This document shows positions 717 to 64,000 of a DNA stretch of 64,000 bases, piece by piece. The position numbers and the translations under genes are program-made. This stretch comes from a virus. The notes beneath the pieces are model-generated. The model saw nothing but the letters and a program-made list of their open reading frames with translations. It was not told the origin of the DNA and made no database searches. The DNA lies in the IMG/VR virus record IMGVR_UViG_3300042890_001842, positions 48,012 to 112,011 of that record, one strand, 5' to 3'. How positions within the stretch are numbered: the first letter of the stretch is position 1; the number at the start of each line of letters is the position of its first letter.

Positions 717-771
717 TTTATTCCTCCTTTCATATTATAGCATAAACATTAAAAATTTTGTATACCCTATT

Positions 772-987: not shown

Positions 988-1004
988 TTTTTACTCCTTT
1001 CATT

Positions 1005-4334: not shown

Positions 4335-4344
4335 AGTTATCTAA

Positions 4345-7300
4345 TTATACTAAACTCATGTATAAATCACCAGTAGAAAAATTCCCTGGATTTGTAGATG
4401 TATATCTTGGAACACCACCAACAAAACCTTGTGTTGATCCTGGGTTAGCGGCATTAAATGCATATCTTGAAGTAATTGTTGAGTTTGGAGTAGTGCTGCC
4501 TCCGTACCAAATTGCTCTACCTGTAACTATTTTTCCATCTGGAATACCGCCAACAACTGCTGGATTAATAATTCTAGTAACTGTTGGGTCTCCAGCAGTA
4601 CCATCATCTCCTCCAGTTGTGTCTGCAAGAACAAGATTTGTTCCAGATATAGTTGTCGTACCTCCAGTTGGATTTGAAATGCTTAAATTTGTGCCATTAT
4701 ATAATAATGCTCCTTTTCCAAATTTAAAGTTTCCAGTGTCATAAATATAATCTGTTGTTGATCCAATATATAATCCATTTAGACCTGTGCCGCCTGCTGC
4801 CTGTCCGAAGGACATGGTTCCTCCGCCTGTAACTGTAATCTTTCCAACAATGTTAGCATTAGTTGCAGTTAAAGCTCCGTCTGCAGTAACTCTAAATGCT
4901 GCTGAGCTTCTTGTAGCAAATGCTTGTTGTCCAGACCACAAAACAACATCGCTTGCAGAAGTTGGAACTGTCATTCCAGTGCTGTACGCCAATGAAGATA
5001 TTGTAGTAGAAATAGCAATATAGTTAGATGATGAGTTTAAATCTATTACAGATCCGCTAGTGCTTTTATTTAGACCAGTTGATGAAATTGTCCATCCGCC
5101 AATAAATCCAGTTTTAAACATTGCAACACCATTTCTAGTTAATGCAAAGTTTGCTGTACCAAAAGCAGCTTGAGTAGCCTCTGTTCCAGTAAGTCCAGAA
5201 GTTGCTGCATCAGAATTTGGATATGCGCCAATTCCTCCAGCATTGAAAATCATTCTATCGCCAGATAATACTGTTGGAATTGCAGCATTTGATATGTACA
5301 AAGATGCTGAATCTATATTTATGTTACCAATTTTGCCACTACTTGCAGTAATCTTACCAGTTATATCAGCACTTGTAGCAGTTAATTTTCCATCTTGTGT
5401 TACCTTAAATAATCCACTGCCTGCGTTTATGAAATCTGCCGTTGTTCCAGAACCAACAAGAGATATATTGCTTGCTCTTACGGATCCATCTGGTTTTACC
5501 CAGAATGGAGCAACATCTGCTCCTCCACTTGTTGTACTGCCTGCCCAAAATGTATGGTTTCCAGTTGAAGATATTCCAGCATACAGATTGCCTGTTGCTC
5601 CAGTTCCTCTTTGTAATTTTGAAGAATCAACTGTCCATCCGCCAATGCTTGCAGATATTGTTGTAATTCTTCCAGTTGCAGCATCAATTATAGTATTGTT
5701 TCCAAATGTTAAACCTTTAGTATTTAATATATATCCAGCGGAAACGTTTAATAGAGCACCTGATTGTGCAGTTTGTTGTGCTTGAACTGGAATTGTATTA
5801 GTTGATGTTTGTGGATTTGCAACAATAGTAGATGCTGTTGTTCCAGTCTGTGTAATGAATGTTCCGTTAAATGCTGAAGAGTTAGCTCCAGTTAAACCAG
5901 ATACAGTTATTACAACTCCAGTTCCTAATCCATGTGCTGCTGATGTGGTGTATGTAGCCTGACCTGATGCACCACTATATGCGGTAACTGTAGGAGTAAT
6001 TTCTGTTCCGCTATATACAGAGCCATCAGTTACTTTAACGTTGCCTTGAAAATTACCACTTCGTGCATTTATTGCACCCGTTACAGTTAATGCATTTCCG
6101 TTCCAAGTTACAGTATTATTTGCAGCACCTACAGAAAATAATCCATTTGAAAACCAATAATTATTTGTACCTATATATATACCATCTAAAGATCCTGCTG
6201 TTGTTGGATTTACAGGAACATTAACAGGATTTACGCCTTTACCTATTAACATTGTTCCGCTATTTACTTTTACTGCTCCCTTAAAATCTCCATCAAAAGC
6301 ATTTATAGTTCCATTAACTGTCAAAGTTGATCCGTCAAAGTATAGTCTATCTCTTAAAGAAAATTTTCCATTAGTATCTAGATAAAAAGGAGTTCCTGGA
6401 TTTGTTCCAGCATCTGCATATGTACCAACTCCACTATAGAATTTAAATGGGTTGGCAGAAAGACCTGTTCCAGTAGCATCAATTTTAATAGCAGTATTTG
6501 AAGTTGATGTAGCTGATCCTGCCACTGGTGCTGTCGCTGATGTGTTGGCTGTAAGTCCAGTACCAGAAGCAAGAACTGTAAATGTATTTGAAGTTACAGA
6601 TTGTATTGACCTATCAGTTATATTAAATCCTAATGGAGTTAAGAATCTAGCAGTTACTAATGTCCCTGCAGCAAAACCATGATTTCCAGAAGTTGTATAA
6701 GTAATATTTGTTGCTGTTCCGTCAACAACTGCATTTATTACTACTGCAGATCTTGCTCCTACTGTAATAACATTATTTGAAAGAAGTCCACCAGCATTTA
6801 TCTGATCTCCTGTTATTTCTCCTCCCCTAATTACGTTTGCACGAACTGCGCCTGGGGCGATATCTCCATTATCTACTTTTAATGTTACTGCAGATCCTTC
6901 TGTTCCTAATGTAGCCGCTTCTCCGTCTGCATCTGTAGCTCTTATTCTTACGTAATATGTTGTGCCATATGTTAAAGGAGTTTGTGTTCCTGGCAATGTA
7001 TCTATAATTGCAAAAGTTCCTGTAACTCTTAAGGCTAAGTTAGCTGGAACTACAGATGTTATAGGGCTTGTTGACAGATAAACTTCATAATTTACTGGAT
7101 CTGCGTTTGAAATTGCTGTCCATTTAACTTCTAGGGCACCATACAAAGGATTTACAATTGCTGCTGGTGATGAGGCTGGAGGATTTCCGTCAGATGTGCC
7201 AACACCAGTAACAGAAACTGTCGATGAAGTTCTTGCTGTGCTAGATACACCATTAGAATCTTCAGCATAAACGTTTACATAATATGAACCAGCAGCAAGT

Positions 7301-9309
7301 CCGCCAAACGACATATTTGTACTAAATGAATATTCTGTAGAAACTAAAACATTTGGAGTTCCAGTTCTATATAATTCAACCTTGTATCTAGATATCGGTG
7401 CTCTTATTACAGATGGTGCTGTCCATGAAGCAACGGCTCCTGCTGTAGAAGCAGTTAGGGTAGCGGTTGCTGGAGGGTCTACTGCTAATGATCCAGTAGT
7501 AAAATTAACATCAGTAGAGTATGCGCTAGTATTATTTGCTGCATCTACTGATGCAACTGAAATATTGTATGTGGTTGAAGGGTTTAAGTCAAAGATTGTA
7601 TGCGTTGTACTTGTTGATACATATTTAACCAATTCTGTTGTGTATACAGATGATGCGCTTGGTTTATATCTTAAACGATATTCTTTTGTGTCACTTCCAG
7701 CTGACTGTGTTATGGTAGCCACTGCTTGATACTTTGATCCAGAAAGTGTTGGAGTTGCAACAGTCACTGTTGGTACTGGCGGTGGGGTTGTATCTAGGGT
7801 TACTGGATTTTGAGCTATCGTGGTTAATTCATTTGAATACAGTGATAAATCTCCGCAATCATTTGAAAATGCTAATCTAACATATATAGTTGTATATGTT
7901 GTATCTGCAACGTATACAGGAGTTACTCCAGATCCGCCAATCTCTGCAGCTGTTGGAGTTGTTGTTGGTTGTCCACTTGGATTTCCCCAGCTAGTTGCCC
8001 TCTTGTAAACTTTTGCATGTGTTGCTCCTGTTGGCAAAGTAAATTTAATGCTGAATCCGTCAGCCAATGCAGTTATATCAGATGCGCTTATCGTTGGTGT
8101 GACTCCAGATAGTGCACTAGTTCTTGTTGGTGTTGAAAAAGCTGTACCAGTATTGATATTGTCAGCTTTATCTGCTGATTTCCAAGTTCCAGTAAATGAT
8201 GTGTAAGCACATGAGCCAAATCTATTATATATATCAAGTGCAGATAATGTTAGTTTGCCTGCTACTAAATCACTTCTCCATACAAAGAATGTTCTTGTTG
8301 TAGTTACAGAATTTAGGACTCCAGTTAAATCAATTAAAAATCTTACGCTGTCATCACCAGTTGCAAATGTTGGAGTTAGTTCTAATGATGCACCATTCCA
8401 TGCTGAAGCAACTGAAACTACATTTGGCGGAGGAGTGACATCTATAGCATCAAAAATAGGATCAATTGGAGTAACTGAAACTGCATTACTGTAACCTGTT
8501 TGTTGACCATTTGTGCTAACAAAATAAGCTCTCACCCATCTTTTTTGAGCAGTTGCTGGAACTAATACTGGATTATCTGTAGACTTTTTAACAAAAGCCC
8601 AGCCAGTTGTCGGAGCAGTCAAACTGTTACTTACCACTTCTTCTATATATATTGCTTCGCAAAGCGTCATATCTTGAGCATTCCAAGACACTAAGTATGA
8701 AAAGTCATCTCCTACTACAGTTATAACTGGCGGATCAAGTGGGTTTGGTGCAACATCTGAAGTTATTGTAACTGGGTCGCTCTCAGTTTTATTTAAAGTA
8801 TCTATTGCAATTACTGTAACTGTAAATTGGCTCCTAAAAAATCCACCAAACTTCGCTTTATTATCTGCGCTTGTAAGTGTCCAAACTTGTGAACTTCCAG
8901 TTTTATTTATTCCAGTATGATAGAAATCTATTGGATTTGCACCATTTGTTATTGGTGTAAGTCTTATTAAATACTTATCTACGCCAGTATTGTTATTAGT
9001 TCCGTTATTTAATGTTGTATCATGATTAAATCTTACATGCAGTGTACCAGTTTTTTTACCAGTATCGTCAAGCCAAGTTCCAGTCAAATTTGTTACTGGT
9101 GAAGGCTTGGCTGCAGACTTTGACAAATACTCATATGTTGCAGACCAATTGTCTCCAACCAAATCATTTAACTTTTGATCTTCAAAAATCCATTGAAATT
9201 GAAATTTATATGGTGTTCCAACTTTTAACGGGCTAATATCAATAAAAATATATTCATTATTTTTATCTGGCTCACTTGGATTAAACTTTAAATCTTGTGG
9301 TCCTGCCAT
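4345..9309 (-). CDS. Central tail fibre / tail tip protein with fibronectin type III repeats
   Basis: 1654 aa. FN3 signatures (LNPSTTYNISVASVD, YYVRIRATD), then repeated G.I.A.SG.IGGW.I beta-helix-type motifs. Confidence 0.75.
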   Translation of the reverse strand: MAGPQDLKFNPSEPDKNNEYIFIDISPLKVGTPYKFQFQWIFEDQKLNDLVGDNWSATYEYLSKSAAKPSPVTNLTGTWLDDTGKKTGTLHVRFNHDTTLNNGTNNNTGVDKYLIRLTPITNGANPIDFYHTGINKTGSSQVWTLTSADNKAKFGGFFRSQFTVTVIAIDTLNKTESDPVTITSDVAPNPLDPPVITVVGDDFSYLVSWNAQDMTLCEAIYIEEVVSNSLTAPTTGWAFVKKSTDNPVLVPATAQKRWVRAYFVSTNGQQTGYSNAVSVTPIDPIFDAIDVTPPPNVVSVASAWNGASLELTPTFATGDDSVRFLIDLTGVLNSVTTTRTFFVWRSDLVAGKLTLSALDIYNRFGSCAYTSFTGTWKSADKADNINTGTAFSTPTRTSALSGVTPTISASDITALADGFSIKFTLPTGATHAKVYKRATSWGNPSGQPTTTPTAAEIGGSGVTPVYVADTTYTTIYVRLAFSNDCGDLSLYSNELTTIAQNPVTLDTTPPPVPTVTVATPTLSGSKYQAVATITQSAGSDTKEYRLRYKPSASSVYTTELVKYVSTSTTHTIFDLNPSTTYNISVASVDAANNTSAYSTDVNFTTGSLAVDPPATATLTASTAGAVASWTAPSVIRAPISRYKVELYRTGTPNVLVSTEYSFSTNMSFGGLAAGSYYVNVYAEDSNGVSSTARTSSTVSVTGVGTSDGNPPASSPAAIVNPLYGALEVKWTAISNADPVNYEVYLSTSPITSVVPANLALRVTGTFAIIDTLPGTQTPLTYGTTYYVRIRATDADGEAATLGTEGSAVTLKVDNGDIAPGAVRANVIRGGEITGDQINAGGLLSNNVITVGARSAVVINAVVDGTATNITYTTSGNHGFAAGTLVTARFLTPLGFNITDRSIQSVTSNTFTVLASGTGLTANTSATAPVAGSATSTSNTAIKIDATGTGLSANPFKFYSGVGTYADAGTNPGTPFYLDTNGKFSLRDRLYFDGSTLTVNGTINAFDGDFKGAVKVNSGTMLIGKGVNPVNVPVNPTTAGSLDGIYIGTNNYWFSNGLFSVGAANNTVTWNGNALTVTGAINARSGNFQGNVKVTDGSVYSGTEITPTVTAYSGASGQATYTTSAAHGLGTGVVITVSGLTGANSSAFNGTFITQTGTTASTIVANPQTSTNTIPVQAQQTAQSGALLNVSAGYILNTKGLTFGNNTIIDAATGRITTISASIGGWTVDSSKLQRGTGATGNLYAGISSTGNHTFWAGSTTSGGADVAPFWVKPDGSVRASNISLVGSGTTADFINAGSGLFKVTQDGKLTATSADITGKITASSGKIGNINIDSASLYISNAAIPTVLSGDRMIFNAGGIGAYPNSDAATSGLTGTEATQAAFGTANFALTRNGVAMFKTGFIGGWTISSTGLNKSTSGSVIDLNSSSNYIAISTTISSLAYSTGMTVPTSASDVVLWSGQQAFATRSSAAFRVTADGALTATNANIVGKITVTGGGTMSFGQAAGGTGLNGLYIGSTTDYIYDTGNFKFGKGALLYNGTNLSISNPTGGTTTISGTNLVLADTTGGDDGTAGDPTVTRIINPAVVGGIPDGKIVTGRAIWYGGSTTPNSTITSRYAFNAANPGSTQGFVGGVPRYTSTNPGNFSTGDLYMSLV

Positions 9310-14255: not shown

Positions 14256-17200
14256 TATTTACTCCTATTGTATCCGATTCTCTTTAATTCTTTTACTTCA
14301 AGGTCAACAATGTATCTTCCGATTTCTTCCTTTGTAAGACTTTGAGGTATGTTATATGTATTCTGCATAACAACATTGCTTCCAAATATTGGAGCCTGTC
14401 CTCCGCTAGCCATAGATACTCTATTTGATGTTCTGCTTGGAACAGAGTACTTTGTTGCTAATCCTCCCATTGCCATTCCATTAATTTTATCAAGCAATGG
14501 TACTCCAACATTTTGAACTGATTGAGCTCTTATTACATACTCTCCACTTGAAAGCATTGCTGGTATGGAATCAGAAGTTCCGCTTCCTGGACCTCTTATA
14601 ATACCACCCATGGCTTTACCCTGCGCTCTTGTCTCCCATGAGTTTGGATCCATATTTCCTTGTGGACCGTAGATCTTATACTTAACTCCCTTGTATTCAA
14701 GAAAGTCTCCAGGTTTTAATCCTTTATCTTGAATTAATTGCTTTCCGCCCTTTGTGCTTAGGGTACCTCTTTCGTTTAATTCGTAAGATCTAAATCCAGC
14801 ACCACTATTAACTTTAAGAGGATTATTAGCTCCGTATTGAGGTGCACCTTCTTTACTCATGTCCAACTTCTTGCCATTTATATAAATGTCGCCAGTTGTA
14901 CTAATTCCTTCTTTAGACAAAGCCTCTGAAAGACCCTTGTCCAGTCCACTCAAAAGATTCATTGCAGTTGTAGCGATATCTTCTGGTCCCAATTTTCCGT
15001 TAACAACATCTGGAAGTCTGGCAGTTCCTACTGGCAATCCAGCCTTTTGAACCGCATTAATAAAATCAGCAGCAAGACCCTTAAACTCAGCAGTTGTTTT
15101 AAACTTTGCTAAATCATCTTTATTGGCAAGTAGTGCAAGCTTAAGTCTAGACATTGCACCATTTACGCCATCAATTTCTGTTTTTTGTTTTGCAATTTTT
15201 GAAGTTAGTGCGTCTAAGCTTTCTCCAGCAAGTGCTGCTTTGTCAGCTAACTTTTCATTTTTATTTTGAATAGCTTCTCTTTGTGCTTCTAAAGGCTTGA
15301 CCTGTTTATCTCTGTCAGCATCGATCTTATTCATTGCAAGAGTAGTTTGTCTACCAGATACAAGCTCACGCATTCTTAATTGTGCTTGTGCGGCAGCTTG
15401 CATATCTCCAGTTGCTATATTTTGCTGATATTCTAATTGAGCTTTTTGTAACTCAAGTTGATAATTTTCTCCTGCTGCTTGATCTTGCAACGCTTTCTTT
15501 CTTGCATCAGCCTCTTCATTAATTTTTTTAATCTTTTTATCAATTGCTCTTATTGCATCACGATCTTTAATCTGTTCAGCTACCGTCTGTCCCTTGGTAG
15601 CCTTAAGCAATTCTTTTTGTCTTGCTGTAAGTTTATCTAGGTTTTCATACTGCTTTTTTAATAGCCCCGTTTTATTTGTTTCAACTACAGCTTTTTGAAC
15701 TGCAACTGATAGCTTGTATAATTGATCTACTTGATCAGTATTTAACTGTGTTAAATCTCCAGCAAATCCAGCAGCTTGAATTCTTAACTTTTGCCAAATG
15801 CTTAATATGGTATCTGAAGATGTAGCAAACTTCTTAACTTCTGGGTTTTGCTTAATTAGGTTTTGTAAAACAGCATCTCCAATTGGTTTCTGTTCTTTAA
15901 CCTTAGCATTAATCATAGAGATCTGCTTATTCTCTGCTTCGTATAAACTTAACTTTTGAGTCTTTCCAGTCTTATCTTTTTTAGCAGCTTCTTCGCTGGT
16001 CTTCATTATATTTTCTACACCTGCGTCAATTGCAGTTAAAGCAGTATTTAATTGAGCTGCCTGATCTCTTGTATTCTGGAAATCCTTAGCCAAGTTAAAT
16101 GTTCCAACTGCACTAACTGCTGCTGTTTCTTGATTACGAATTTCTCCAAAACCCTTTGAACCAATTGCAGATACTGCTGACATTGGCTTATTTGAAAGCT
16201 TAAACAATACGTATATCTTCTTAGTAGCCTCTTCAGCAGACATGCCAGCTGCAACAAATTGCTCCTTCAACTGAATTGCAACTTGATTTATATCTTTAGA
16301 CTTTGTAGCGCTAATTAGATCTATTTGATCCTTCATTGTTGTTTTTACTTCTTTTTGAAGTTTCTTATATTCTTCAATAGTAAGCTTAAAAGGAGTTCCA
16401 GCAGACTGCAGGCTTTCGTAAATAAGTTTATTCTTATCCAATAATAACTTTACTGAATCTATTGAATCTTTTATTTTTGAAGTATAGCTTGTATATTTTA
16501 GTCCAGCCTTTTCTGCAGATTCAGCAGTTAATCCAAATGCTGCAGCTGATAATCTTTGTGTTTCGTTATAGTTTTGCCAAGCCTTATATGCTCCAGCTAC
16601 TATTGTAGTTCCAGCTGCCAAAGCAAGATTTGTTCTTGTAATTCCAAGTAAAACTTTTCCTGATATCTTTGCAAATGTGTTGGAAGATGTTGCTATTTTT
16701 TCAACACCTCCAGCATATTTTCCAAGTACTGGTGTTCCTTGTGCGAATATAGACTGTCTTCCTTTTGAGATCTGCTCAATAGGAGTATTGAATGCTAGCG
16801 GAACTCCCTCTTGCATAGGTTTTCCAAAAGCGGCTAAGTTGGGAGTTAATGTTGAAGTTCTTCCAAGTCTTTGTTGAGGGGTTATACCAGATCCTCTAGA
16901 ACCAAACATTCCAGGCAAAAGGATTGATCCAAGGATACCACCAATCATAGATCCACCACTTCCGCCAAATTTAGAACCTAATGCTTGTCCTGCTGAGCCT
17001 CCCAAAATTGATGCTAACAATTGAACAATCATTCCACCTTTATTGTATCCCTTAACCATACCTCCCATGGCATATCCTGGAATTATTCCACCAGAGTTTT
17101 TAGGAACAAATACTTCTGGTCCATCTTCTCCGACTAGATATGGTCTTCCGCCACTTACTGGTCCGCCATTTTTACGTGCACCATCAACTACTGTTTCTAC

Positions 17201-20200
17201 TTGTAGTTTGCCTTTATCAAATCCTACTACTCTAAACTTTCCGCCAAATATTGCTTCTTGTTCTGATCTATATTGACCTCCGAACTTGCTACCAGCACTC
17301 CAATCTTGTCCATATGGAGCTAAGAATTTTTTATCTGGGAACATGTCTCCAGCTGGTAAGATGTTTCTATTTTTTATAGCCGCTTCGATTACAACATTAT
17401 TTGGATCTACTCCAGAACCTGGTGCAAAGAAGTTGGCGATCTGTGGACTCTTGCTCCATGAAGATCGGCGCATAATAAATTCTTTGCCAATTAGTCCAGA
17501 TAAATCACCAGTAGATCTTGCAATACCTATAGCTTCTATTAAATCTTGAGGAAGTCCCTTAAAAGTTTTATCAAGTCTTATTCCTCTAAATAACTTACCA
17601 GTAAATTTTCTTTGAAGAGTTTTCATTGCAGCTATTGGACCCAAAGGATGATTTCCAAGTCTCTGCATCTGACTCATTATGTCTAAGTTGCCTGACATAT
17701 ACTGTGCTGTGGCATACTTGCCACGCTCTTCCATATTTCCAGTTAAAAATTGTGGAAGCATTGCTTGTCTTGCAAATCTGTCATCCTTATAAAGAACTTC
17801 TTTTAGAAAATCAGGATCATTTTGGAAATTTTTTGGAGTCATAGATCTACCAATTTGAAGTGGACCATGTAATGGATCTTGGTTTCCTAATGTATATTGA
17901 TATCCTGGCATTCTAAACTGCTGTTGAGGTTTCCATCTTGCAGTTATTTTATCAACTATTGTTTTTGATAATGGCTTTACAATTCTTCCAGCAATATTAC
18001 TTCCAAAGTATTGAACTCCTGGAACCATGCCGCCCTTGTTAAATGAAATATCTGAATTATCTTTATTATATACCGCTGGGCCTGAGCCAGAAATTTGAGA
18101 ACCACGAAGATTTCCCAATTGTCTCATTTCATCAAAATAATTGCTGCTAGATCCTTGAATTTTAAGTTTTGCTAAATGTCTTCTAAGAATTTTTTCCATA
18201 AATTCTTCAAATGTATTTGTATCTTTACCAAAAGGAATTCTTCTTGATGTCAACTGACTTTGTGCATCTTCCCATGCATCTGCAAAAACTTTATTTATTT
18301 TTTTAGAAGGATATCCAAGCATTCTTGCAGATGACATCATTGTTGAGAATGGATGCATCAATCCGCCTCTTAAAGCTTCAAGAATTAATTTTGGATTACC
18401 ACCTGTAATTAATGAAAGGTTCCCTCCCTCACCAAATCTAGTTTGTGGTCCAAACAGTGCTGGCATAATATACTGTCCAGTATCTGTTTTATGTACAGGA
18501 GTAGAGAAATGACTCCTATCTATTCCAGACCATAAATTATTAACTTCATTGTCATTTAAATTTTGTAACTGATCCTTTGTATAATAGGCTCCTGTTTTTG
18601 GATCTTTTATCTTCCATCCAGCATCATGACTTTGAATTAAATCAATTCTTCTAGAGCCAGAATGTGCACCAGTTCCTGTTGAAAAGTAATGTCTATGTAA
18701 CGGCTTTCCTCTTACATTTAAAGTTCTTCTTGGAACTGCTCTGCTCCATGGAGAATTGGAGAGCATTGAACTAATCATTGATAGTGTTGGTCTTGGTCCG
18801 TATCCTCCTCTATTTGAAGATACAATTCCTCCGCCTAATATTGATCCACCTAAATTTCTTCCCTGTAGAGGAACAACCATTGCTCTTCCTTCATTAAGAG
18901 CTCTCATTCCATCTGGATCTTGTTGTGCAATACCTCTACGAATTACAAACTCTCCTGGAGTAAGCATTGCTGGAACAACATCTGCATCTACATTCGGGCC
19001 AGGAACTTGGTCTCCATTATTGTAGAATACATTTCCTCCAGAATTTAATCCTTGTGGCCTTGTTGTTTCAATACTATAAGGACCACCCATTGTTCTTGTT
19101 CTTGTTGCTTTTCCAACAGCAGCCATGACATCTGCAAATATTCCTTGACGGAACATTCCACGAGTATTTGGTTTACCCTTAGCATCAACAACTGGTTGAT
19201 CTATAAGTGGTGCTTTTGTTAAATCTATTGTTCTTCCACGAGATGCGGCATATGCTGATACTTCGATACCCATCATTCTTTCAAGCTCAGCATTTGAGGC
19301 AATAATTGCTGCACGAGCCTGCTGAATATTTATCTTTCCAGCTTTAAGCTCTCCAACAATTTGAGCAGATTGTGCAGCAGCATTTGCTGTAAGTCTTTGT
19401 GTAATTGGCAGAATGTCATCAAATGTATCAATAAACTCTTTTGAAACTTGTCCGCCCATTCCAATAAGCTTTTTCAAATTATCTATTTCTGCTTTGCTTT
19501 GTACGCCCAATGCTCCCATTAATGCTGTATATCTTGCATGCTGTGAGGCAACTACTCCAGTAGAAACTCCATTTATAGTTGTAAGTCCTGAAACATCTGG
19601 AAGTCTTTCATTCATTAATATTTGAGGATTAGCGCCAATATTTCTGTTTACTGGGACTGGTTGTAATGTTAATCCAAATATTGAAGTTGGATTATCTGGG
19701 TCTCTTGGATTTAAATGTGCTGCTGCTCTTGAAGTTCCGCCAAGCAATGGATGATCTTTGTCTACAACTCTTTGTCCTGAAGCACCAAAATTCATTACTG
19801 GTGTGCCAGCTGCAGTTGTCATTACGCTGCCTAGGGTAGCAGTTGATGCTGTCGCCTTTCTTGCATTTGCTTCCAATAAAACTAAGTCTTCGCTTAGTTT
19901 TTTAATAGCTAGGCTTAAGGTTGCTGCTGCCTTTGAATCACTATAAAATTCATTTCCAAGTTTCTTGCTTGCATCTTGTGCAGCCATTATTTCTGGTGTT
20001 AATAATTTAAATCCTTCTGCGCCTTTAAATAAAGCTTTAAAGTGTCCAAGTCCTTTAATAATATATCCAAAGAAGTTTGCCAAAACACCAGTAAGCATAA
20101 TTACTGGTCCTAGAATTGCTGTAAATGCACCGCCAAATGTCATAAGCTTTTTAATTGGATCTGGTAACTTCTGTGCAAAATCTATAATGCCACCTAGTAC

Positions 20201-57271: not shown

Positions 57272-57293
57272 TGTCAGACCCCCCCTGTATAGT
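57272..57293 (+). promoter_or_regulatory. PafBC / RecA-independent-type promoter 1
   Basis: TGTCAG-N10-TATAGT. Confidence 0.8.
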
Positions 57294-57332
57294 TATTACT
57301 ATAAAGATAAACAATGAAAGGTAGGTCAATAA

Positions 57333-57530
57333 ATGACTACACTAACTACTACACAGGTATTCGATTACCTAGATGCTAAAGGCATCTGCGCTATGGATAA
57401 CATCTGCGTATTCTGCTCAATCCGTATGGATGGATGGGATAGGACATGCCGTAGATGCCGTGAGCATAAGGGCGTTATGTCCGTCACGGATGCCGTTCAA
57501 CAGTACGGAATAGACATCCTAGGCATGTGA
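57333..57530 (+). CDS. Small zinc-finger protein
   Basis: CVFC...CRRC; SD present. Confidence 0.7.
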   Translation: MTTLTTTQVFDYLDAKGICAMDNICVFCSIRMDGWDRTCRRCREHKGVMSVTDAVQQYGIDILGM

Positions 57531-57569
57531 TGTAAACCACACGCTTCCGACAGCGTGTCGTCTTGATAA

Positions 57570-57591
57570 TGTCGGCGCCCCATGATAGTAT
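57570..57591 (+). promoter_or_regulatory. PafBC-type promoter 2
   Basis: TGTCGG-N10-TAGTAT. Confidence 0.8.
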
Positions 57592-57624
57592 TCCATTATT
57601 AGAAACTAACGAAAGGACATAACA

Positions 57625-57825
57625 ATGTCAGCTAATGTATACTCAATTCAATCTATCCTAATCGGCAAGGCTTATCGTAGCCGTTCAATTCAAGGTATCA
57701 TAGAGGACGCTGAGCCTCGCCCTAATGTCTACTACGCAGACGCTGAGGCGTATGCCGTCCGTGTCCGTCCTACTAATGGCGGGCGTGATGAATGGCGCAC
57801 CTTAGCGGTAGCCGATGTGAGGTAA
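57625..57825 (+). CDS. Small beta-barrel-like protein; paralog of 60120-60329
   Basis: MSANVY.I.S.L.GK.YRS.S..G.I.DAE shared. Confidence 0.75.
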   Translation: MSANVYSIQSILIGKAYRSRSIQGIIEDAEPRPNVYYADAEAYAVRVRPTNGGRDEWRTLAVADVR

Positions 57826-57859
57826 CTCACATACACGCTACGGCGTGTCGTCTTGATAA

Positions 57860-57881
57860 TGTCGGTCAAGTCTGATAGTCT
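57860..57881 (+). promoter_or_regulatory. PafBC-type promoter 3
   Basis: TGTCGG-N10-TAGTCT. Confidence 0.8.
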
Positions 57882-57957
57882 TACAGACATAACAATTAAA
57901 TAAGGGTATGAGCCTAGCAAATAAGACCCTGTAACTACTAACGAAAGAAGAAAACTA

Positions 57958-58074
57958 ATGAACCTAGACGAATTCAAGGCGCATGTCCTAGCGACACGCC
58001 AAGCAAGCAAAAGCGAGGCTTTGTCAGCCCTATCCGCTACAATTACAACAACAACAACGAAAGAAGGTAAATAA
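57958..58074 (+). CDS. 38-aa peptide overlapping promoter 4 (not in ORF track)
   Basis: ACGAAAG leader; MNLDEFKAHVLATRQASKSEALSALSATITTTTTKEGK; stop abuts the next ATG. Confidence 0.55.
   Translation: MNLDEFKAHVLATRQASKSEALSALSATITTTTTKEGK
58022..58043 (+). promoter_or_regulatory. PafBC-type promoter 4
   Basis: TGTCAG-N10-TACAAT. Confidence 0.78.
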
Positions 58075-58260
58075 ATGACTAAATGGGATACTATTCAAGC
58101 AGACATAGCAGATGCTTACACACACTTTGATGAGGAAGATGCTTACAATCAAATGCTAGATGATGAAGAAGATACTTTTGGTTTTATCAAGGCTATCAAC
58201 ATAGACCACCTAACAGATGAACAATTAGATGAAGTATTCGACATGTTTGGAGATAAATAA
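58075..58260 (+). CDS. Highly acidic small protein
   Basis: 19 D/E in 61 aa; GAAGG SD. Confidence 0.7.
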   Translation: MTKWDTIQADIADAYTHFDEEDAYNQMLDDEEDTFGFIKAINIDHLTDEQLDEVFDMFGDK

Positions 58261-58416
58261 ATGAAGATAACATACTCACTTTGGCAAGGTACTCAATTAC
58301 TAAGCACAAATAATAAGGCAGATAAGCCAGAAGAGATTCTGGCGATAATGAAAGAATTAGAAAAACTAGGTAATGGGTTTTCATTTATCGTTAGAGAAGT
58401 AGAGATAAACAAATAA
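58261..58416 (+). CDS. 51-aa hypothetical protein (not in ORF track)
   Basis: GGAG SD; MKITYSLWQG... Confidence 0.6.
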   Translation: MKITYSLWQGTQLLSTNNKADKPEEILAIMKELEKLGNGFSFIVREVEINK

Positions 58417-58556
58417 TGACACTAAGAATAAATGACTATGGCTTAGAGTTTGATACCTATGTTTGCTACATAGCGTTATCGTGGCAGGTACTTATTCCCG
58501 CTACCATTGCCCTAATTGCTTACAAGATTTACAAGAGAAAGAAGATAACTAAATGA
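58416..58556 (+). CDS. 46-aa single-TM peptide (not in ORF track)
   Basis: TAATG coupling; hydrophobic stretch then KIYKRKK. Confidence 0.55.
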   Translation: MTLRINDYGLEFDTYVCYIALSWQVLIPATIALIAYKIYKRKKITK

Positions 58557-58681
58557 CTATGAATAGACTACTAACTAGCCTAGTCCAATTGGCTATCGCT
58601 ATTCCCGCCCTGTATCTAGGGCGTATGGCGTGGCACATGTTCAAGGAAGATGTGAGAGAACTCACAAAAGATTTTCGCTAA
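58553..58681 (+). CDS. 42-aa single-TM peptide (not in ORF track)
   Basis: ATGA coupling; LLTSLVQLAIAIPALYLG. Confidence 0.55.
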   Translation: MTMNRLLTSLVQLAIAIPALYLGRMAWHMFKEDVRELTKDFR

Positions 58682-58794
58682 TCTACGGCGTGTCGGCTTG
58701 ACAAAGTCAAGCTGGCCCGCAAAGGAGTGGGGGCCCCAATGTGTTTAAGATCACATTAAAAAATCCCCTGAATTTTCGGCGTGTCGTAGAAATT

Positions 58795-58816
58795 TGTCAG
58801 TCTGTTATGGTAGTAT
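58795..58816 (+). promoter_or_regulatory. PafBC-type promoter 5
   Basis: TGTCAG-N10-TAGTAT. Confidence 0.8.
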
Positions 58817-58845
58817 TCCAATATCTACTAACGAAAGGTCTACTC

Positions 58846-58938
58846 ATGAACAAATGTTCTTCATGCGGTCAAGACACTACTCAGTTTATTACTGATGATG
58901 GTGAATACTACTATCCAATGTGCGGGGAGTGCTACTAA
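58846..58938 (+). CDS. 30-aa micro zinc finger
   Basis: ACGAAAGG leader; CSSC...CGEC. Confidence 0.6.
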   Translation: MNKCSSCGQDTTQFITDDGEYYYPMCGECY

Positions 58939-59126
58939 TGACTAAAATTTTCTGCGGTAATCGTAACTGTACCGAATTTATTCTTGATGATGCTACTTAT
59001 GACTATCAGTCTTGGGTCTGTAATGAATGCTACGATAAATCAGAAATGGAATTTTTTGGCTGGCGTGATATTGATTCCGACCATATGAATACACGCATGG
59101 CGGATGCAGAAATGGGGGATTTATAA
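58938..59126 (+). CDS. Small zinc-finger / acidic protein
   Basis: TAATG coupling; CGNRNC...CNEC. Confidence 0.6.
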   Translation: MTKIFCGNRNCTEFILDDATYDYQSWVCNECYDKSEMEFFGWRDIDSDHMNTRMADAEMGDL

Positions 59127-59875
59127 TGTCAGACGTCTTAGATATAATCTACCCCATGAAACTAAAACGCTCAAATGATCGTAAAGTTGCCAACCTTGTA
59201 ACTAAGAATGGCAAGCAGGCTGCAATTGCTAATACTTTCGGCCTGCCCGCTGGTAAAGAATTCTCATGCCCTGGCGCTACTAGCATATGCGAAAGCGTAT
59301 GCTATGCAGGGAAATTGGAAAAGCTCTTCAAGGGTGTTAAAACTAATCTTCTGCACAATTGGGAATTGTTACGCAATGCGGATATGGATACCATGCTCGT
59401 ATTGCTTGACGATATGATTATTGAATTTATCAATGATTGTGAAAAGAAAGACGCACCTAAATTATTCCGTATCCACTGGGACGGAGATTTCTTTAACGAT
59501 ACTTATACATATGCGTGGAAATCTGTTATTGCTAATCATCCTGATGTTCAATTTTGGGTTTATACACGTGTTAAGTCTGCGGCTCTTATTCTAAAAGATA
59601 TTTCTAATCTATCACTGTATTACTCTACTGATGATGATAATAAAGAAATTGCTCATGACTTAAAACTAAATTCTGGTATCCGCCTTGCTTATCTGGGAAA
59701 GACTTTCGCTGTTACTGAAAACACAATGAAAGAATTAACTGGAAAGCCTGGCGCTAAATGTCCTGAGAATATGAAAAGTATTCCGCTAATTTCTTCCGCT
59801 GGATCCGCATGTGTATCATGTGGGTTATGTGTTTATGGAAAAGCAGATATTAGATTTTCTGCGAGTAAAAAATAA
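59126..59875 (+). CDS. GP88-family (radical-SAM-like Fe-S) phage protein
   Basis: CPGA...C...CYA, FRIHWDGDF, FWVYTR and C-terminal C..C..C motifs. Confidence 0.75.
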   Translation: MSDVLDIIYPMKLKRSNDRKVANLVTKNGKQAAIANTFGLPAGKEFSCPGATSICESVCYAGKLEKLFKGVKTNLLHNWELLRNADMDTMLVLLDDMIIEFINDCEKKDAPKLFRIHWDGDFFNDTYTYAWKSVIANHPDVQFWVYTRVKSAALILKDISNLSLYYSTDDDNKEIAHDLKLNSGIRLAYLGKTFAVTENTMKELTGKPGAKCPENMKSIPLISSAGSACVSCGLCVYGKADIRFSASKK

Positions 59876-59936
59876 TCTAAAAGGTACGGCGTGTCGACTT
59901 GACAAATCGGCATGCCGCCCGCATATATGTGGGGGC

Positions 59937-59987
59937 TGTGGATAACTTACGAGAAGCTGTGGAAAACCCTGAAAATTCTGTGGACGA
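59937..59987 (-). promoter_or_regulatory. Three DnaA-box-like 9-mers at 21-bp spacing
   Basis: TGTGGATAA at 59937 (perfect), TGTGGAAAA at 59958, TGTGGACGA at 59979. Confidence 0.65.
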
Positions 59988-60065
59988 CACGCCCGAAATC
60001 TTGTGAGTTTTATCACATGGCTTGAGCGTCTCATATCGTGGAATTACTGGCTAGTAATATGAAAA

Positions 60066-60087
60066 TGTCAGTGGGTTTTGGTACAAT
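60066..60087 (+). promoter_or_regulatory. PafBC-type promoter 6
   Basis: TGTCAG-N10-TACAAT. Confidence 0.8.
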
Positions 60088-60119
60088 ACTCTTATTCAAC
60101 AAACGAAAGGCGGACTTAA

Positions 60120-60329
60120 ATGTCAGCAAATGTCTATACAATCGAAAGCCTACTAGTAGGAAAAACCTATCGCTCAAAGTCTCTAACTGGAGAAATCATT
60201 GATGCAGAAAAAACAAATGATGTCTGGTATGCAGACTGCGATACATACAGGGTGCAAGTTAGACCTCATTACTCAGCACCGCTAAATCTTAAAGATACAT
60301 ACCGCTATTTAGCAGTTAAAACCTCATAA
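60120..60329 (+). CDS. Small beta-barrel-like protein; paralog of 57625-57825
   Basis: Shared N-terminal half; ACGAAAGG leader. Confidence 0.75.
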   Translation: MSANVYTIESLLVGKTYRSKSLTGEIIDAEKTNDVWYADCDTYRVQVRPHYSAPLNLKDTYRYLAVKTS

Positions 60330-60402
60330 ATAAATAATCGAAACAGGGGCAGTTTAGAGGGAGTCCTCGCCCAATGTCGTAAGTAAGAACCCTCACACAA
60401 TT

Positions 60403-60424
60403 TGTCAGTGGTAACTGATACAAT
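60403..60424 (+). promoter_or_regulatory. PafBC-type promoter 7
   Basis: TGTCAG-N10-TACAAT. Confidence 0.8.
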
Positions 60425-60457
60425 AACTAAACAAACAAACGAAAGGGAAAACCTAAA

Positions 60458-60607
60458 ATGGGAAACATACTAGATGAAATGAGCGGAACAATTTCCGTTG
60501 TAACATGCGAGGATTGCTTAGGGTTTGGAGCAATTTTTTGGGGTAATGATGAGGATTACCATGTCGAGCCTTGCGATTGCGTAAATGATGAGATTGGAGA
60601 TTACTAA
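60458..60607 (+). CDS. 49-aa acidic zinc-binding peptide (not in ORF track)
   Basis: CEDCLGFG...CDC; ACGAAAGG leader. Confidence 0.6.
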   Translation: MGNILDEMSGTISVVTCEDCLGFGAIFWGNDEDYHVEPCDCVNDEIGDY

Positions 60608-60608
60608 G

Positions 60609-60812
60609 ATGTATCAGATTACTTTATCTTATGACGGAAAGCCACTTCATTGGAATAAAAACTATGTAGATGCCTTAGAAGCATTTGAGGCATTTGCTAA
60701 GTTTACAGATGTTGGATTTGCTAACGAATACTCAACGATTAACCTATCAATGCCAACAGGCAAAATGTACACAAAAGTAATTGACCGCATGGGAAAGGTA
60801 ACAATTAAATGA
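60609..60812 (+). CDS. Hypothetical protein
   Basis: GGAG SD before MYQIT. Confidence 0.65.
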   Translation: MYQITLSYDGKPLHWNKNYVDALEAFEAFAKFTDVGFANEYSTINLSMPTGKMYTKVIDRMGKVTIK

Positions 60813-61000
60813 TGACACGAAAAGACTATGTAGCAACCGCAGAAATTCTAAAGTATGCTAGCGATAAATCGCACCCCGCTTTATTTTCTAAAATCGTAAA
60901 TGATTTTGCTGAAATGTTTGCGAAAGATAATCCACGATTTGATGTAACGAGATTTCATGAAGCGAGTGGATACAATGTTCCAAAATTCACTTCGAGATAA
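60809..61000 (+). CDS. Hypothetical phage protein
   Basis: MTRKDY...A..F..DNPRFD..RF..A pattern typical of small phage proteins. Confidence 0.7.
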   Translation: MMTRKDYVATAEILKYASDKSHPALFSKIVNDFAEMFAKDNPRFDVTRFHEASGYNVPKFTSR

Positions 61001-61112
61001 AGTAAAGCGAATTCAGGAGTTGCGGAGATCAAATGCCGCAACCCCTGTACGCAATAAGAAAAAATATTCAAGAAAAACAAAACATAAGCGGCGTGTCGAT
61101 TTGACAGATTGA
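60975..61112 (+). CDS. 45-aa basic peptide with ArfA-like KKKYSRK.KH motif (not in ORF track)
   Basis: MFQNSLRDKVKRIQELRRSNAATPVRNKKKYSRKTKHKRRVDLTD. Confidence 0.55.
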   Translation: MFQNSLRDKVKRIQELRRSNAATPVRNKKKYSRKTKHKRRVDLTD

Positions 61113-61231
61113 TCAGCTGCCCGCAATAGTGTGGGGGCATAGAGGCTTTTAAGTCAAGCACCAAAACTCCCTGAAAATTGTGAGGTTTATCACAAAATAA
61201 ATCTGCGACACGCCGAAGGTGAATTAGTAAA

Positions 61232-61253
61232 TGTCAGTAGGCCATGCTAAAAT
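61232..61253 (+). promoter_or_regulatory. PafBC-type promoter 8
   Basis: TGTCAG-N10-TAAAAT. Confidence 0.8.
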
Positions 61254-61282
61254 ACTCTTATTCCAACAACGAAAGGTATCAA

Positions 61283-61486
61283 ATGAAAATCGAACACAAC
61301 CTAAAGTTTGTAACAGAGTTTGCAGACAATCACCCAGTAACAGCACAAATGCTAAACATGCCTGAACCTATGCGTGTATTGCTATTAGAGTCAATGCTAA
61401 AAGAATTACTTGCACCACGCTTGCAACCTCTATTAGATGAAATCAATGCAGGTGGGTCATACGCAATTCTAAAGGTGGCTGAATAA
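61283..61486 (+). CDS. Hypothetical protein
   Basis: ACGAAAGG leader before MKIEH. Confidence 0.7.
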   Translation: MKIEHNLKFVTEFADNHPVTAQMLNMPEPMRVLLLESMLKELLAPRLQPLLDEINAGGSYAILKVAE

Positions 61487-61761
61487 TGGGATACACAACA
61501 GCATTAGCACTTGCAGATGACCTATCATTAGAGGCAGGGTTAGCCTATCACTTACAGGCTAATCATTACCCACCCGTTCCCGTTGCTATGGTGCAACCTT
61601 GCATAGATGCTATTGATGCATACTATGATGAGGACTATGGTCGTGAAGTATCTTTACCTGAAGGTATCTCATGGCGTGGGCAGGTAACTGCACCAGCACA
61701 TGCAATAATTGATGCACACCACTTAGATGCTTGGCTAGTAAGCGAGGACTACGATGAGTAA
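61486..61761 (+). CDS. Hypothetical protein
   Basis: 91 aa; HL..NHYPPVP...HHL motif; TAATG coupling. Confidence 0.7.
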   Translation: MGYTTALALADDLSLEAGLAYHLQANHYPPVPVAMVQPCIDAIDAYYDEDYGREVSLPEGISWRGQVTAPAHAIIDAHHLDAWLVSEDYDE

Positions 61762-61894
61762 TCTTTATTCTATCTTATCTACTTGGTATCCTGAAGGAGA
61801 CTTCAACGAAGCTGAATTGTGGGATGCTATCGCTGAAAACGAAGGCGTTGATGTAAATGAGATCATGGATGGCGATCTAACAGACTACCTGTGA
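61754..61894 (+). CDS. 46-aa acidic peptide with no Lys or Arg (not in ORF track)
   Basis: GAGG SD; MSNLYSILSTWYPEGDFNEAELWDAIAENEGVDVNEIMDGDLTDYL. Confidence 0.6.
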   Translation: MSNLYSILSTWYPEGDFNEAELWDAIAENEGVDVNEIMDGDLTDYL

Positions 61895-61933
61895 TGTATC
61901 TCACACGACACTCCCCTCAGAAATGAGGGGAAA

Positions 61934-61955
61934 TGTCAGTGGGCTATTGTATAAT
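61934..61955 (+). promoter_or_regulatory. PafBC-type promoter 9
   Basis: TGTCAG-N10-TATAAT. Confidence 0.82.
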
Positions 61956-61985
61956 ACTACCAACAACAAAACGAAAGGAAACAAA

Positions 61986-62135
61986 ATGACAACACTAGAA
62001 ATCGGACAGACATACACCACTTCAACAAGCGGTGTAACAGGAACAATCGTGGCGGTAGATAATCACCCAAGCGGTGTAAATCGTGTCTTGCTTGATGTCA
62101 ATGGCAAAGAGCGTTGGACAAGCGTTCCAAACTAA
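61986..62135 (+). CDS. 49-aa SH3-like beta protein
   Basis: ACGAAAGG leader before MTTLEIG. Confidence 0.65.
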   Translation: MTTLEIGQTYTTSTSGVTGTIVAVDNHPSGVNRVLLDVNGKERWTSVPN

Positions 62136-62185
62136 TTCCTGATAAGGAAAAGTCCTGAGCATGACTACTAAAACTGCTCACAATT

Positions 62186-62207
62186 TGTCAGACCCCTATG
62201 CTATACT
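62186..62207 (+). promoter_or_regulatory. PafBC-type promoter 10
   Basis: TGTCAG-N10-TATACT. Confidence 0.8.
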
Positions 62208-62242
62208 AACCAACCAACCAACCAAACGAAAGAGGAAAATAA

Positions 62243-62668
62243 ATGGCTAGAAACGGAAAATCTATTAGCGTGAAAATCGCTACACCAAAGGTAATCAAGG
62301 CACTAGAAACACGCCTTGCTGAATTAGAAAAGAACTACGCTACACAGGGCGAGAACGAAGCAAAGTATCAGAAAGCCCGTGATAAGTGGCAAAAAGAAAT
62401 TGGCAAGTGGGCTATGTCTAACTTCTCAAAGGCTGAGAACCTTCGTACAAACTATCGTAATTGGAACAAAACTCTCAATGTAGATTTTGACCTTACAGTA
62501 AATGAGAGCGACTTCCCTAAAGAACCTGAAAAGGATTTTGAGACAATTCACCAGCACACATACAATGAGCAGAAAGAGGAAATCACGAACGCAATTCGTA
62601 TCCTCAAGATGACAGATGAGGAAACAGTAAATACCTCAACCTATAACGCTATTGCTCGTTATCTGTAA
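62243..62668 (+). CDS. Hypothetical protein
   Basis: 141 aa; GAGG SD. Confidence 0.75.
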   Translation: MARNGKSISVKIATPKVIKALETRLAELEKNYATQGENEAKYQKARDKWQKEIGKWAMSNFSKAENLRTNYRNWNKTLNVDFDLTVNESDFPKEPEKDFETIHQHTYNEQKEEITNAIRILKMTDEETVNTSTYNAIARYL

Positions 62669-62678
62669 ATAAATAGTG

Positions 62679-62705
62679 GGAGGGCTAGACACACTCTAGC
62701 CCTCC
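62679..62705 (+). terminator. GC-rich hairpin, followed by a TGC-TATAAT promoter
   Basis: GGAGGGCTAGA-CACAC-TCTAGCCCTCC. Confidence 0.55.
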
Positions 62706-62742
62706 ATGCTATAATTCGTATCCCTACTAACAAAGGAACAAA

Positions 62743-63000
62743 ATGAAAAATCGTTATCGTATCGAAATCTATGATGATGTAAAAGCAAATGATTTGACTA
62801 TTTATTCTGAGTCAAATGTAGATAAAGAATACTTAACTGAAATGGTATTCTCTAACTTAAGACAATTCTCTGGAAACATTCGTGCATACGTATATGACAA
62901 TGTAAAGAAAAAGAAAACCACTGCACTGATTCTACCAATGGAATTGTTAGCTAAATATAGAAATTACAAACTTACTTCTGATGAAATACTAATGAATTAA
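62743..63000 (+). CDS. Hypothetical protein
   Basis: 85 aa; AAGGA SD. Confidence 0.7.
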   Translation: MKNRYRIEIYDDVKANDLTIYSESNVDKEYLTEMVFSNLRQFSGNIRAYVYDNVKKKKTTALILPMELLAKYRNYKLTSDEILMN

Positions 63001-63004
63001 TAAT

Positions 63005-63040
63005 TATGAGGCGGGATCCGTGCCCGCCTCATATTATTTT
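63005..63040 (+). terminator. Intrinsic terminator
   Basis: TATGAGGCGGG-N7-CCCGCCTCATA followed by TTATTTT. Confidence 0.7.
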
Positions 63041-63059
63041 GGCCCGCAAAGGTAAGGGG

Positions 63060-63089
63060 TTATCCACAGCTTTAAGAGAGTTATCCACA
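63060..63089 (+). promoter_or_regulatory. Two perfect DnaA boxes 21 bp apart
   Basis: TTATCCACA at 63060 and 63081. Confidence 0.75.
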
Positions 63090-63155
63090 ATCCCCGAAAT
63101 TTGTGAGATTGATCACACGAGACAATTCGGACAAATGACTAACAAGACTAGTAAA

Positions 63156-63177
63156 TGTCAGTCCCCTATGTTATACT
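63156..63177 (+). promoter_or_regulatory. PafBC-type promoter 11
   Basis: TGTCAG-N10-TATACT. Confidence 0.8.
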
Positions 63178-63209
63178 CAATCCAACAACCAATCGAAAGG
63201 AAATAAATT

Positions 63210-64000
63210 ATGGCTCACAATCTAGAAGTCGAAAACGGCGAAGTTGCTTTTGCGCTACGTGGAAAACCAGCATGGCACAATTTAGCAAATCGCATCTTTA
63301 CACAAGATGAAGAAGTAACTACACAAACAATGCTTGAAGAGGCAAAGTTAGCAAATTGGAATGTTCGTCTATCTCCAATCGCTGAGCACATTCCAGAATC
63401 ATGGAATGATGTTTCTACTGCATCTCTTGTATTGCGTGACAATCCATTCAATGGCGGAACTGATGTTCTTGCAACTGTTGGAAAGCGTTATAAGCCTGTG
63501 CAGAATGAAGAATTGTTTGCATTCGCTGATGCAATTCATGATGCAAACGCTGACTGTCGCTGGGAATCTGCTGGTTCTCTAAAGCAGGGCAAAGTTGTAT
63601 TTGGTACTGTTGATATTCCTCGCACAATGGTGCTTGACCCTAGCGGTGCTAATGATGAAACTAAGTTGTATCTAATTGTTTGGACATCTCATGACGGGTC
63701 TGTTGCTGTTCAGGCTGCTGTTACTCCTGTTCGTGTTGTATGCCAAAACACTTTGAATCTTGCAATGCGTAATGCAAAGCAATCTTTCAAGATTCGCCAC
63801 ACGCAATCTGTTGAAGGTCGCATTCAAGTTGCTCGTGAGACTCTTGGTCTTGCTCTTGGATACTTTGATGAATTTGAGAAGGAAGCGCAAGCACTCTACA
63901 CTCAATCAATTACTGATTCAGAATTCTCAAAGTTGATTCAAACAATCTACCCAAAGCCTGAGAAGGATTCAAAGGGTGCTTTGAAGAAGTGGGAAAACAA
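63210..64000 (+). CDS. DUF932 / TIGR03299-like protein, truncated by the window edge (not in ORF track)
   Basis: MAHNLE...PAWH.L, Y..VQN.E.F, ESAGSL..G, SHDGS, RVVCQNTL and IRHT motifs. Confidence 0.85.
   Translation, partial: MAHNLEVENGEVAFALRGKPAWHNLANRIFTQDEEVTTQTMLEEAKLANWNVRLSPIAEHIPESWNDVSTASLVLRDNPFNGGTDVLATVGKRYKPVQNEELFAFADAIHDANADCRWESAGSLKQGKVVFGTVDIPRTMVLDPSGANDETKLYLIVWTSHDGSVAVQAAVTPVRVVCQNTLNLAMRNAKQSFKIRHTQSVEGRIQVARETLGLALGYFDEFEKEAQALYTQSITDSEFSKLIQTIYPKPEKDSKGALKKWEN

Follow-up and report, generated by a model that had tools for sequence, protein, structure and literature searches.

Promoters resembling those of the actinobacterial activator PafBC head a small-gene block in a predicted freshwater actinophage

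What reads a set of phage promoters that all carry the same hexamer at one fixed distance from the -10 element? The question arises from a 64,000-nucleotide stretch of viral DNA (the window), positions 48,012-112,011 of IMG/VR record IMGVR_UViG_3300042890_001842. An original prediction, made from the letters of this stretch, listed 11 early promoters of the form TGTC(A/G)G, 10 nt, TAnnnT, and proposed that the phage runs its early genes from the DNA-damage sensor of its host, the activator PafBC. Here we place these promoters in the whole record, in related phages and in candidate hosts, and conclude that host PafBC is the best-supported candidate for their reader, a view we hold with moderate confidence. 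Coordinates are those of the window unless marked "genome", which refers to the whole record.

The TGTCAG array and its gene block

Each of the 11 listed sites is an exact match to TGTCRG-N10-TANNNT on the + strand (Table 1). The window as a whole holds 14 exact matches, all on +, where 100 dinucleotide shuffles gave an expectation of 0.93 +/- 1.01 and a maximum of 3. Across the record we counted 24 forward and 0 reverse matches, as against 0 and 1 for a control motif read backward. The record is 112,011 bp long and carries an exact 3,269-bp direct terminal repeat, the phage itself being approximately 109 kb with 37% GC. Collapsing the repeat left 20 unique sites, at genome positions 99,973-108,742 plus 1-8,263. 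The enrichment over the rest of the genome that had been proposed as a check is therefore borne out, with all 20 sites confined to one rightward block of small genes. The same holds for the claim of invariant spacing with diverse spacers: 20 sites were found at N=10, compared with 0-2 at the other spacings between N=6 and N=14.

Downstream of the box the sites are similarly uniform. In the genome 17 of them are intergenic and are followed by an A/C-rich leader, then ACGAAAGG, then an ATG. For the 11 listed sites, the predicted A/C-rich leader and GAAAG(G) ribosome-binding site are present and the ATG lies 23-39 nt past the -10, except at 57860, where the distance is 76 nt. Three matches in the window, at 51962, 59127 and 60121, lie beyond the list. 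Site 51962 falls inside an open reading frame (ORF). Site 60121 overlaps an ORF start (ATGTCAGCAAATG...), arises from the coding sequence of ORF 60120-60329 and looks like a chance match; this ORF and the one at 57626-57826 are small paralogs that both begin MSANVY. Site 59127 may be a real promoter producing a leaderless GP88 mRNA, because 7 nt past its -10 there is an in-frame ATG; this codon is residue 11 of the ORF, and the GP88 Pfam match starts exactly there.

The block that holds the TGTCAG sites is approximately 12 kb long, reads rightward and spans the terminal repeat, with nearly all other genes of the phage on the opposite strand. Each of its operons is headed by a TGTCAG promoter. 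The replication and structural genes on the minus strand (genome 8,600-99,800; window 1-51,800) have TGnTATAAT promoters without the box, and their ribosome-binding sites read AGGAG, as opposed to GAAAGG in the block. Because the box is confined to the block and the minus-strand promoters lack it, we conclude that it is specific to one gene class. The two classes differ in their transcription and translation signals alike. Judging from their position in the genome, the block genes are probably early, host-takeover genes.

We then asked which other promoter elements accompany the box, scoring the 17 intergenic sites of the genome for a match to TTGACA at 16-18 nt from the -10. Eleven of the 17 score 3/6 or less, equal to background. 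The -10 boxes themselves are near consensus (TAyAAT), mostly with an extended TGn, which is present at 11 of the 17 sites. A scan of the 49-64 kb region for canonical -35/-10 promoters gave a modest excess over shuffles and did not pick up the TGTCAG promoters, and no LexA box was found in the window. Only one promoter-like site in the block lacks the TGTCAG box: TAGACA-18-TATAAT with a TGn, at 62686-62715, which directly follows a terminator-like hairpin and precedes an 85-amino-acid (aa) ORF.

Conservation of these promoters was examined in related phages. Using the DUF932 protein of the block as a query, we retrieved 310 related IMG/VR contigs, and analyzed the best 80 loci (1.32 Mb). These 80 contain 1,143 forward matches to the motif, compared with 5 reverse matches and 8-9 in controls. 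When orthologous regions were projected on each promoter, the TGTCAG, TA..AT and ACGAAAGG columns were kept, while the 10-nt spacer and the flanks varied. The consensus in a logo built from 1,063 distinct sites is AAW-TGTCAG-TSS-N4-TGn-TAnAAT; box position 5 is A in 90% and G in 10% of sites, the TGn positions are T in 61% and G in 75%, and the profile is flat at the -35 position. We also scanned IMG/VR with the motif alone and found contigs that have no nucleotide similarity to this phage and share almost no early proteins with it, yet carry dense one-strand arrays of the form aaa-TGTCAG-tgg-N7-TAtAAT, each with a tiny gene downstream, behind a short leader and GAAAGG. The portals of these distant phages are only about 50% identical to the portal of this one. 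The persistence of the arrays despite almost unshared early proteins points to a reader that is itself conserved and encoded outside the early block. In Streptomyces phages Jay2Jay and Muntaha, the nearest cultured relatives, the motif occurs 0-2 times, no more than the control, and the promoter trait is thus not family-wide. Taken together, the TGTCRG arrays are almost certainly real promoters under selection.

Candidate readers in the phage and in its likely hosts

The phage encodes a portal, capsid protein, tape measure, RecA, DnaE-like polymerase, DnaG and DnaB, along with a class II ribonucleotide reductase, PstS and many glycosyltransferases; the PstS-like phosphate-binding protein and RecA lie outside the window, at genome 24,752-25,798 and 37,449-38,456. 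Also encoded are a WhiB, which scores above the Pfam cut-off, a protein of the GP88 family, known otherwise from phages of Mycobacterium and Streptomyces, and an early protein that is Lsr2-like. The portal is 56-58% identical to portals of Streptomyces cluster BE phages (Stanwilliamsviridae). On the strength of the WhiB, GP88-family and Lsr2-like proteins and the Stanwilliamsviridae-like portal, we assign this uncultured freshwater phage to the actinophages, of the low-GC kind. The block had no nucleotide match among cultured phages, and a search for WhiB homologs as clues to the host returned phage relatives only. We also considered whether an ADP-ribosyltransferase in an insert of the tape measure (17150-18019, - strand) might trigger the host alarm; the insert had no Pfam match and no PDB sequence match, no fold search being made, and the idea found no support in either.

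If a phage protein reads the box, it might be recognizable by family. Profile searches of the phage genome found no WYL domain and no sigma-70 region 2 above cut-off, and for sigma-70 region 4 gave nothing above cut-off and one sub-threshold match (E 0.002) in a 47-aa frame. Among the 34 small ORFs of the block, searches of Pfam and PHROGs found no transcription-factor family. One 63-aa early ORF is widely common to the distant phages. As a reader of the box we rejected it, since it belongs to no family and its cultured homologs occur only in phages of Proteobacteria, those of Pelagibacter and Rhizobium. With a TGTCAG promoter at the head of each operon in the block, the first transcription would need a reader already present in the cell or the virion.

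On the host side, the best genome matches of the phage PstS are in freshwater Actinomycetota, namely metagenome-assembled genomes (MAGs) from the Rimov reservoir and an Aquiluna MAG. The host is more plausibly a low-GC freshwater actinobacterium than a mycobacterium. Each of the genomes reached through PstS has two adjacent WYL genes encoding proteins of approximately 310 aa. In one candidate-host genome of 1.3 Mb both proteins of the pair align over their whole length with the Mycobacterium smegmatis PafB and PafC in 7P5X (E 7e-36 and 3e-29). The RMFERDK motif of PafB, including R46 and R50, is kept. NCBIfam supplied no names for the PafB- and PafC-like proteins, which the PDB sequence search did match. 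Sampling the candidate order more widely (61 genomes of 1.2-2.2 Mb), we found tandem pafB-pafC in 61 of 61, so that the proposed reader is present in this candidate lineage, and the refuting case of a host lineage without PafBC was not seen.

The candidate hosts also carry the box. Upstream of recA, 25 of 30 genomes of the order have TGTCAG(tgg/ccc)-N-TAnnnT with a LexA box directly after it, and the other 5 have cGTCRGTGG-N7-TACCTT; as judged from these elements, the recA promoter has the classical recA P1-type layout. The host variant of the box, with A at position 5 followed by TGG or CCC, is the phage variant. It also fronts carD, two DEDDh exonuclease genes, DUF6504, a LysM (ChiZ-like) gene, uvrD and rmuC, with LexA boxes at the DUF6504 and LysM sites. 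Host promoters of this type are mostly leaderless, many having 6-7 nt between the -10 and the ATG, the distance also found at phage site 59127. The host -10 boxes behind the same box are weak (TACCTT, TAGCTT), and these promoters must therefore need activation. Across 41 genomes of the order the motif occurs 353 times compared with 219 for the backward-read control, a 1.6-fold excess, in keeping with a regulon of few genes. In four candidate genomes the raw counts showed no excess over control, the enrichment being visible order-wide and through the downstream genes only.

Two streamlined freshwater actinobacterial genomes contain clusters of 6-9 TGTCAG promoters in islands of 20-30 kb. The island genes behind the box include a C5 DNA methylase, an OGG-like glycosylase and TPR proteins, and one 15-kb island operon behind the box carries VWA, GIY-YIG, UvrD-like, NERD-kinase and HerA-like genes. 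These defense-like islands of candidate hosts may belong to the same regulon.

Weighing the explanations

The PafBC motif defined in vivo is tGTCgg(N10)tA(N3)T; it combines an element at -26 with a -10 and lacks a -35. The helix-turn-helix (HTH) of PafB reads the GTC triplet via R46 and R50 at -23 to -28, and the HTH of PafC takes over the -35 contact of sigma-A region 4 (PMC8635444). The consensus given in the original prediction, TGTCGG-N10-TA-N3-T, is correct by this account. PafBC joins RNA polymerase (RNAP) on its promoters only when loaded with single-stranded DNA (ssDNA) (PMC11804915). The phage sites show every sequence-level feature of this class: a tGTCRg at -26, the 10-nt spacing and no -35 consensus.

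We thus favor a model in which the phage promoters would be read by the housekeeping RNAP of the host. The TGTCAG box at approximately -26, exactly 10 nt upstream of the -10, would stand in for a -35 element, with PafB-PafC placed between the DNA and region 4 of sigma-A ("sigma adaptation"). Infection would supply the ssDNA signal, and ssDNA-loaded host PafBC would recruit or stabilize RNAP-sigma-A on some 17-20 phage promoters. These would drive the rightward terminal block, leaving the rest of the genome to plain extended -10 promoters. We judge it somewhat more probable than all its competitors together that host PafBC reads the phage promoters, because the promoters are identical in class to those of PafBC, plausible hosts have both the reader and the same box at recA, and no phage reader was found. 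Of the proposed host damage-sensor program, then, the promoter sequence, the actinophage assignment and the presence of pafBC in candidate hosts stand.

Several points weigh against this model. The link to the candidate hosts through PstS is weak (31-37% identity), a route to genomes and not proof of a host. Three of the 17 intergenic sites do score 5/6 for a -35 (TTGATA or TTGAAA at 17 nt). In actinobacteria an extended -10 can suffice without any upstream element. The phage -10 boxes come close to consensus, with a TGn at 11 of 17, and these strong extended -10s might act without PafBC, which may then be only a booster, or the box may serve otherwise. Streptomyces has PafBC, and cluster BE phages nevertheless lack the motif, so the trait is not a simple consequence of a PafBC-bearing host. 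An unrecognized phage factor, perhaps borne in the virion, could escape family searches. Finally, the model gives a lytic phage no evident reason to tie its first genes to an ssDNA signal.

We considered the alternatives in descending order of probability. The first, which we regard as unlikely, is that TGTCAG is read by a phage-specified factor, a novel small early or virion protein comparable to MotA/AsiA of T4, and that the likeness to host promoters reflects convergence or mimicry. In the block, over 30 small ORFs belong to no known family, the absence of the motif from the Streptomyces relatives is as expected of a lineage-specific phage gene, and T4 middle promoters share the layout, with a box near -30 plus a -10 (PMC8635444). 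However, any activator encoded in the block would itself lie behind a TGTCAG promoter, so that a host or virion reader would be needed first, and distant phages with the array share almost no early proteins with this one. The sole widely shared ORF, of 63 aa, has the proteobacterial phage homologs described above, no WYL, HTH or sigma family was found in the phage, and recA of the candidate hosts has the identical box variant.

An extension of the PafBC model, which we find doubtful, is that the arrays both switch on takeover genes at the ssDNA alarm and, as 17-20 super-consensus sites per genome, soak up PafBC and starve the host regulon. The host alarm would then be at once ignition key and sink for the phage, and the starved regulon would include DNA repair and defense-island-like operons.

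A second unlikely alternative is that these are plain extended -10 promoters of sigma-A, with TGTCAG acting as an operator for later shut-off or as an idle seat of non-activated PafBC. The TGn at 11 of 17 sites and the near-consensus -10s would fit this, as would the minus-strand genes, which run from extended -10 promoters alone, and shut-off of the early block is common in lytic phages. However, a box that is one-sided and non-palindromic and keeps an invariant 10-nt register to the -10 is more suggestive of contact with RNAP than of a dimeric repressor, the same box in candidate hosts precedes weak -10s, and without ssDNA PafBC stays off RNAP-promoter complexes (PMC11804915). Copies of a duplicated cassette, or chance matches without selected function, are very improbable: some leaders and intergenic modules are alike, but spacers and flanks differ between sites and between orthologs while box and -10 are fixed, the reverse strand has 0 matches, chance alone predicts about 1 match, and the arrays recur in phages without nucleotide similarity.

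To our knowledge, sigma adaptation of the PafBC type has been described only in actinobacteria, as a response of the chromosome to DNA damage. The literature we searched on PafBC together with phage, mycobacteriophage, RecA-NDp and freshwater actinophages describes no phage promoters of the TGTCAG type. If host PafBC does read these arrays, an abundant and diverse group of lake phages would have built a whole gene class on a host activator, set off by an ssDNA alarm that infection itself triggers. This would be a third route to the timing of phage genes, beside phage sigma factors and T4-type appropriation. The arrays would also offer strong natural PafBC promoters for work in vitro, and the PafBC regulon would extend to streamlined freshwater lineages, where defense islands are suggested to be under the same switch.

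Features of the block and comparison with known systems

The coordinates of the promoters and of the block are collected in Table 1.

Table 1. Promoters of the rightward block and the block itself, in window coordinates.
Feature	Position	Strand	Context
Promoter TGTCAG-N10-TATAGT	57272..57293	+	Before 65-aa Cys-rich ORF 57334-57531; orthologous site kept in 11 related loci
Promoter TGTCGG-N10-TAGTAT	57570..57591	+	TTGATA -35 at 17 nt; before 66-aa ORF 57626-57826; in ortholog comparison
Promoter TGTCGG-N10-TAGTCT	57860..57881	+	TTGATA -35; 76-nt leader
Promoter TGTCAG-N10-TACAAT	58022..58043	+	Before five small ORFs in a run, 58076-58682; in ortholog comparison
Promoter TGTCAG-N10-TAGTAT	58795..58816	+	Before two small zinc-ribbon-like ORFs
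Possible 12th promoter TGTCAG-N10-TATAAT	59127..59148	+	7 nt, then in-frame ATG; GP88-family gene 59156-59875
Promoter TGTCAGTGG-N7-TACAAT	60066..60087	+	Before 69-aa ORF 60120-60329; kept in 61 related loci
Promoter TGTCAGTGG-N7-TACAAT	60403..60424	+	Before four small ORFs 60459-61003; in ortholog comparison
Promoter TGTCAG-N10-TAAAAT	61232..61253	+	Before three small ORFs 61285-61894; in ortholog comparison
Promoter TGTCAGTGG-N7-TATAAT	61934..61955	+	Before 49-aa ORF 61986-62135
Promoter TGTCAG-N10-TATACT	62186..62207	+	Before 141-aa ORF 62243-62668
Promoter TGTCAG-N10-TATACT	63156..63177	+	Before DUF932 gene (63210 to past window end; 334 aa in genome); kept in 77 related loci
Rightward small-gene block, in-window part	57272..64000	+	Runs on through terminal repeat to genome ~8,500; ribosome-binding sites ACGAAAGG

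Other repeated elements share the block with these promoters. Ten TGTGA-N6-TCACA palindromes (CRP/GlxR-like, with at most 1 mismatch) occur between 57197 and 63117, where 2.8 would be expected by chance; all are inside the promoter block, mostly 30-50 nt upstream of TGTCAG boxes, and they may represent a second input, of cyclic-AMP type, or a phage operator. The 9-mer GGCGTGTCG occurs ten times in the block, in both orientations, between 57552 and 61914, with 1.4 expected in the whole window, and intergenic modules are flanked by inverted repeats of it, paired at 57842/57992, 59888/59985 and 61090/61206. Set beside this 9-mer, the recA promoters of the candidate hosts have GCGACAC 9-10 nt upstream of TGTCAG. 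The DnaA-box-like sequence TTATCCACA is found twice, 21 nt apart (63060-63068 and 63081-63089), with an inverted copy, TGTGGATAA, at 59937-59945; these copies sit in long intergenic modules and adjoin GCCCGC...GGGGGC hairpins. The right copy of the terminal repeat starts at 60732, within a 75-aa ORF (60585-60812) and not in an intergenic gap, and for this reason the 3,269-bp repeat may be a product of contig assembly rather than the physical ends.

The closest likeness of the phage promoters is to PafBC promoters (RecA-NDp, recA P1-type) of Mycobacterium and other Actinobacteria, which have the same box at approximately -26, N10 and TAnnnT with no -35. In these the box G is often followed by TG, as in the phage, and recA of the candidate hosts has the same layout. 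The phage differs in being of lytic type, with 17-20 such promoters per genome gathered in one block and with a dependence on PafBC that we infer. Its promoters have near-consensus extended -10s, long A/C-rich leaders, strong ribosome-binding sites and no LexA boxes, whereas the PafBC-type sites of the candidate hosts have weak -10s, are often leaderless and often have LexA boxes.

In host-takeover clusters of the SPO1 and T5 type, many closely spaced promoters on one strand precede tiny genes in or next to a long terminal repeat. Such clusters share the layout of this block, but their canonical -35/-10 promoters are read by unaided host holoenzyme. T4 middle promoters, with a MotA box at -30 plus a -10, likewise have an activator box replacing the -35 and form one temporal class (PMC8635444). 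In T4 a phage-encoded activator and co-activator remodel sigma region 4, whereas searches of the present phage found no such factor and the likely reader is a host activator. Lastly, the WYL anti-phage proteins BrxR and CapW, and prophage promoters wired to the SOS response, likewise tie the sensing of DNA damage or ssDNA to the conflict between phage and host. There the sensor is used by the host or by a prophage repressor, against the phage or for induction; unlike these, the virulent-type phage described here would employ the activator to run its own block of genes.

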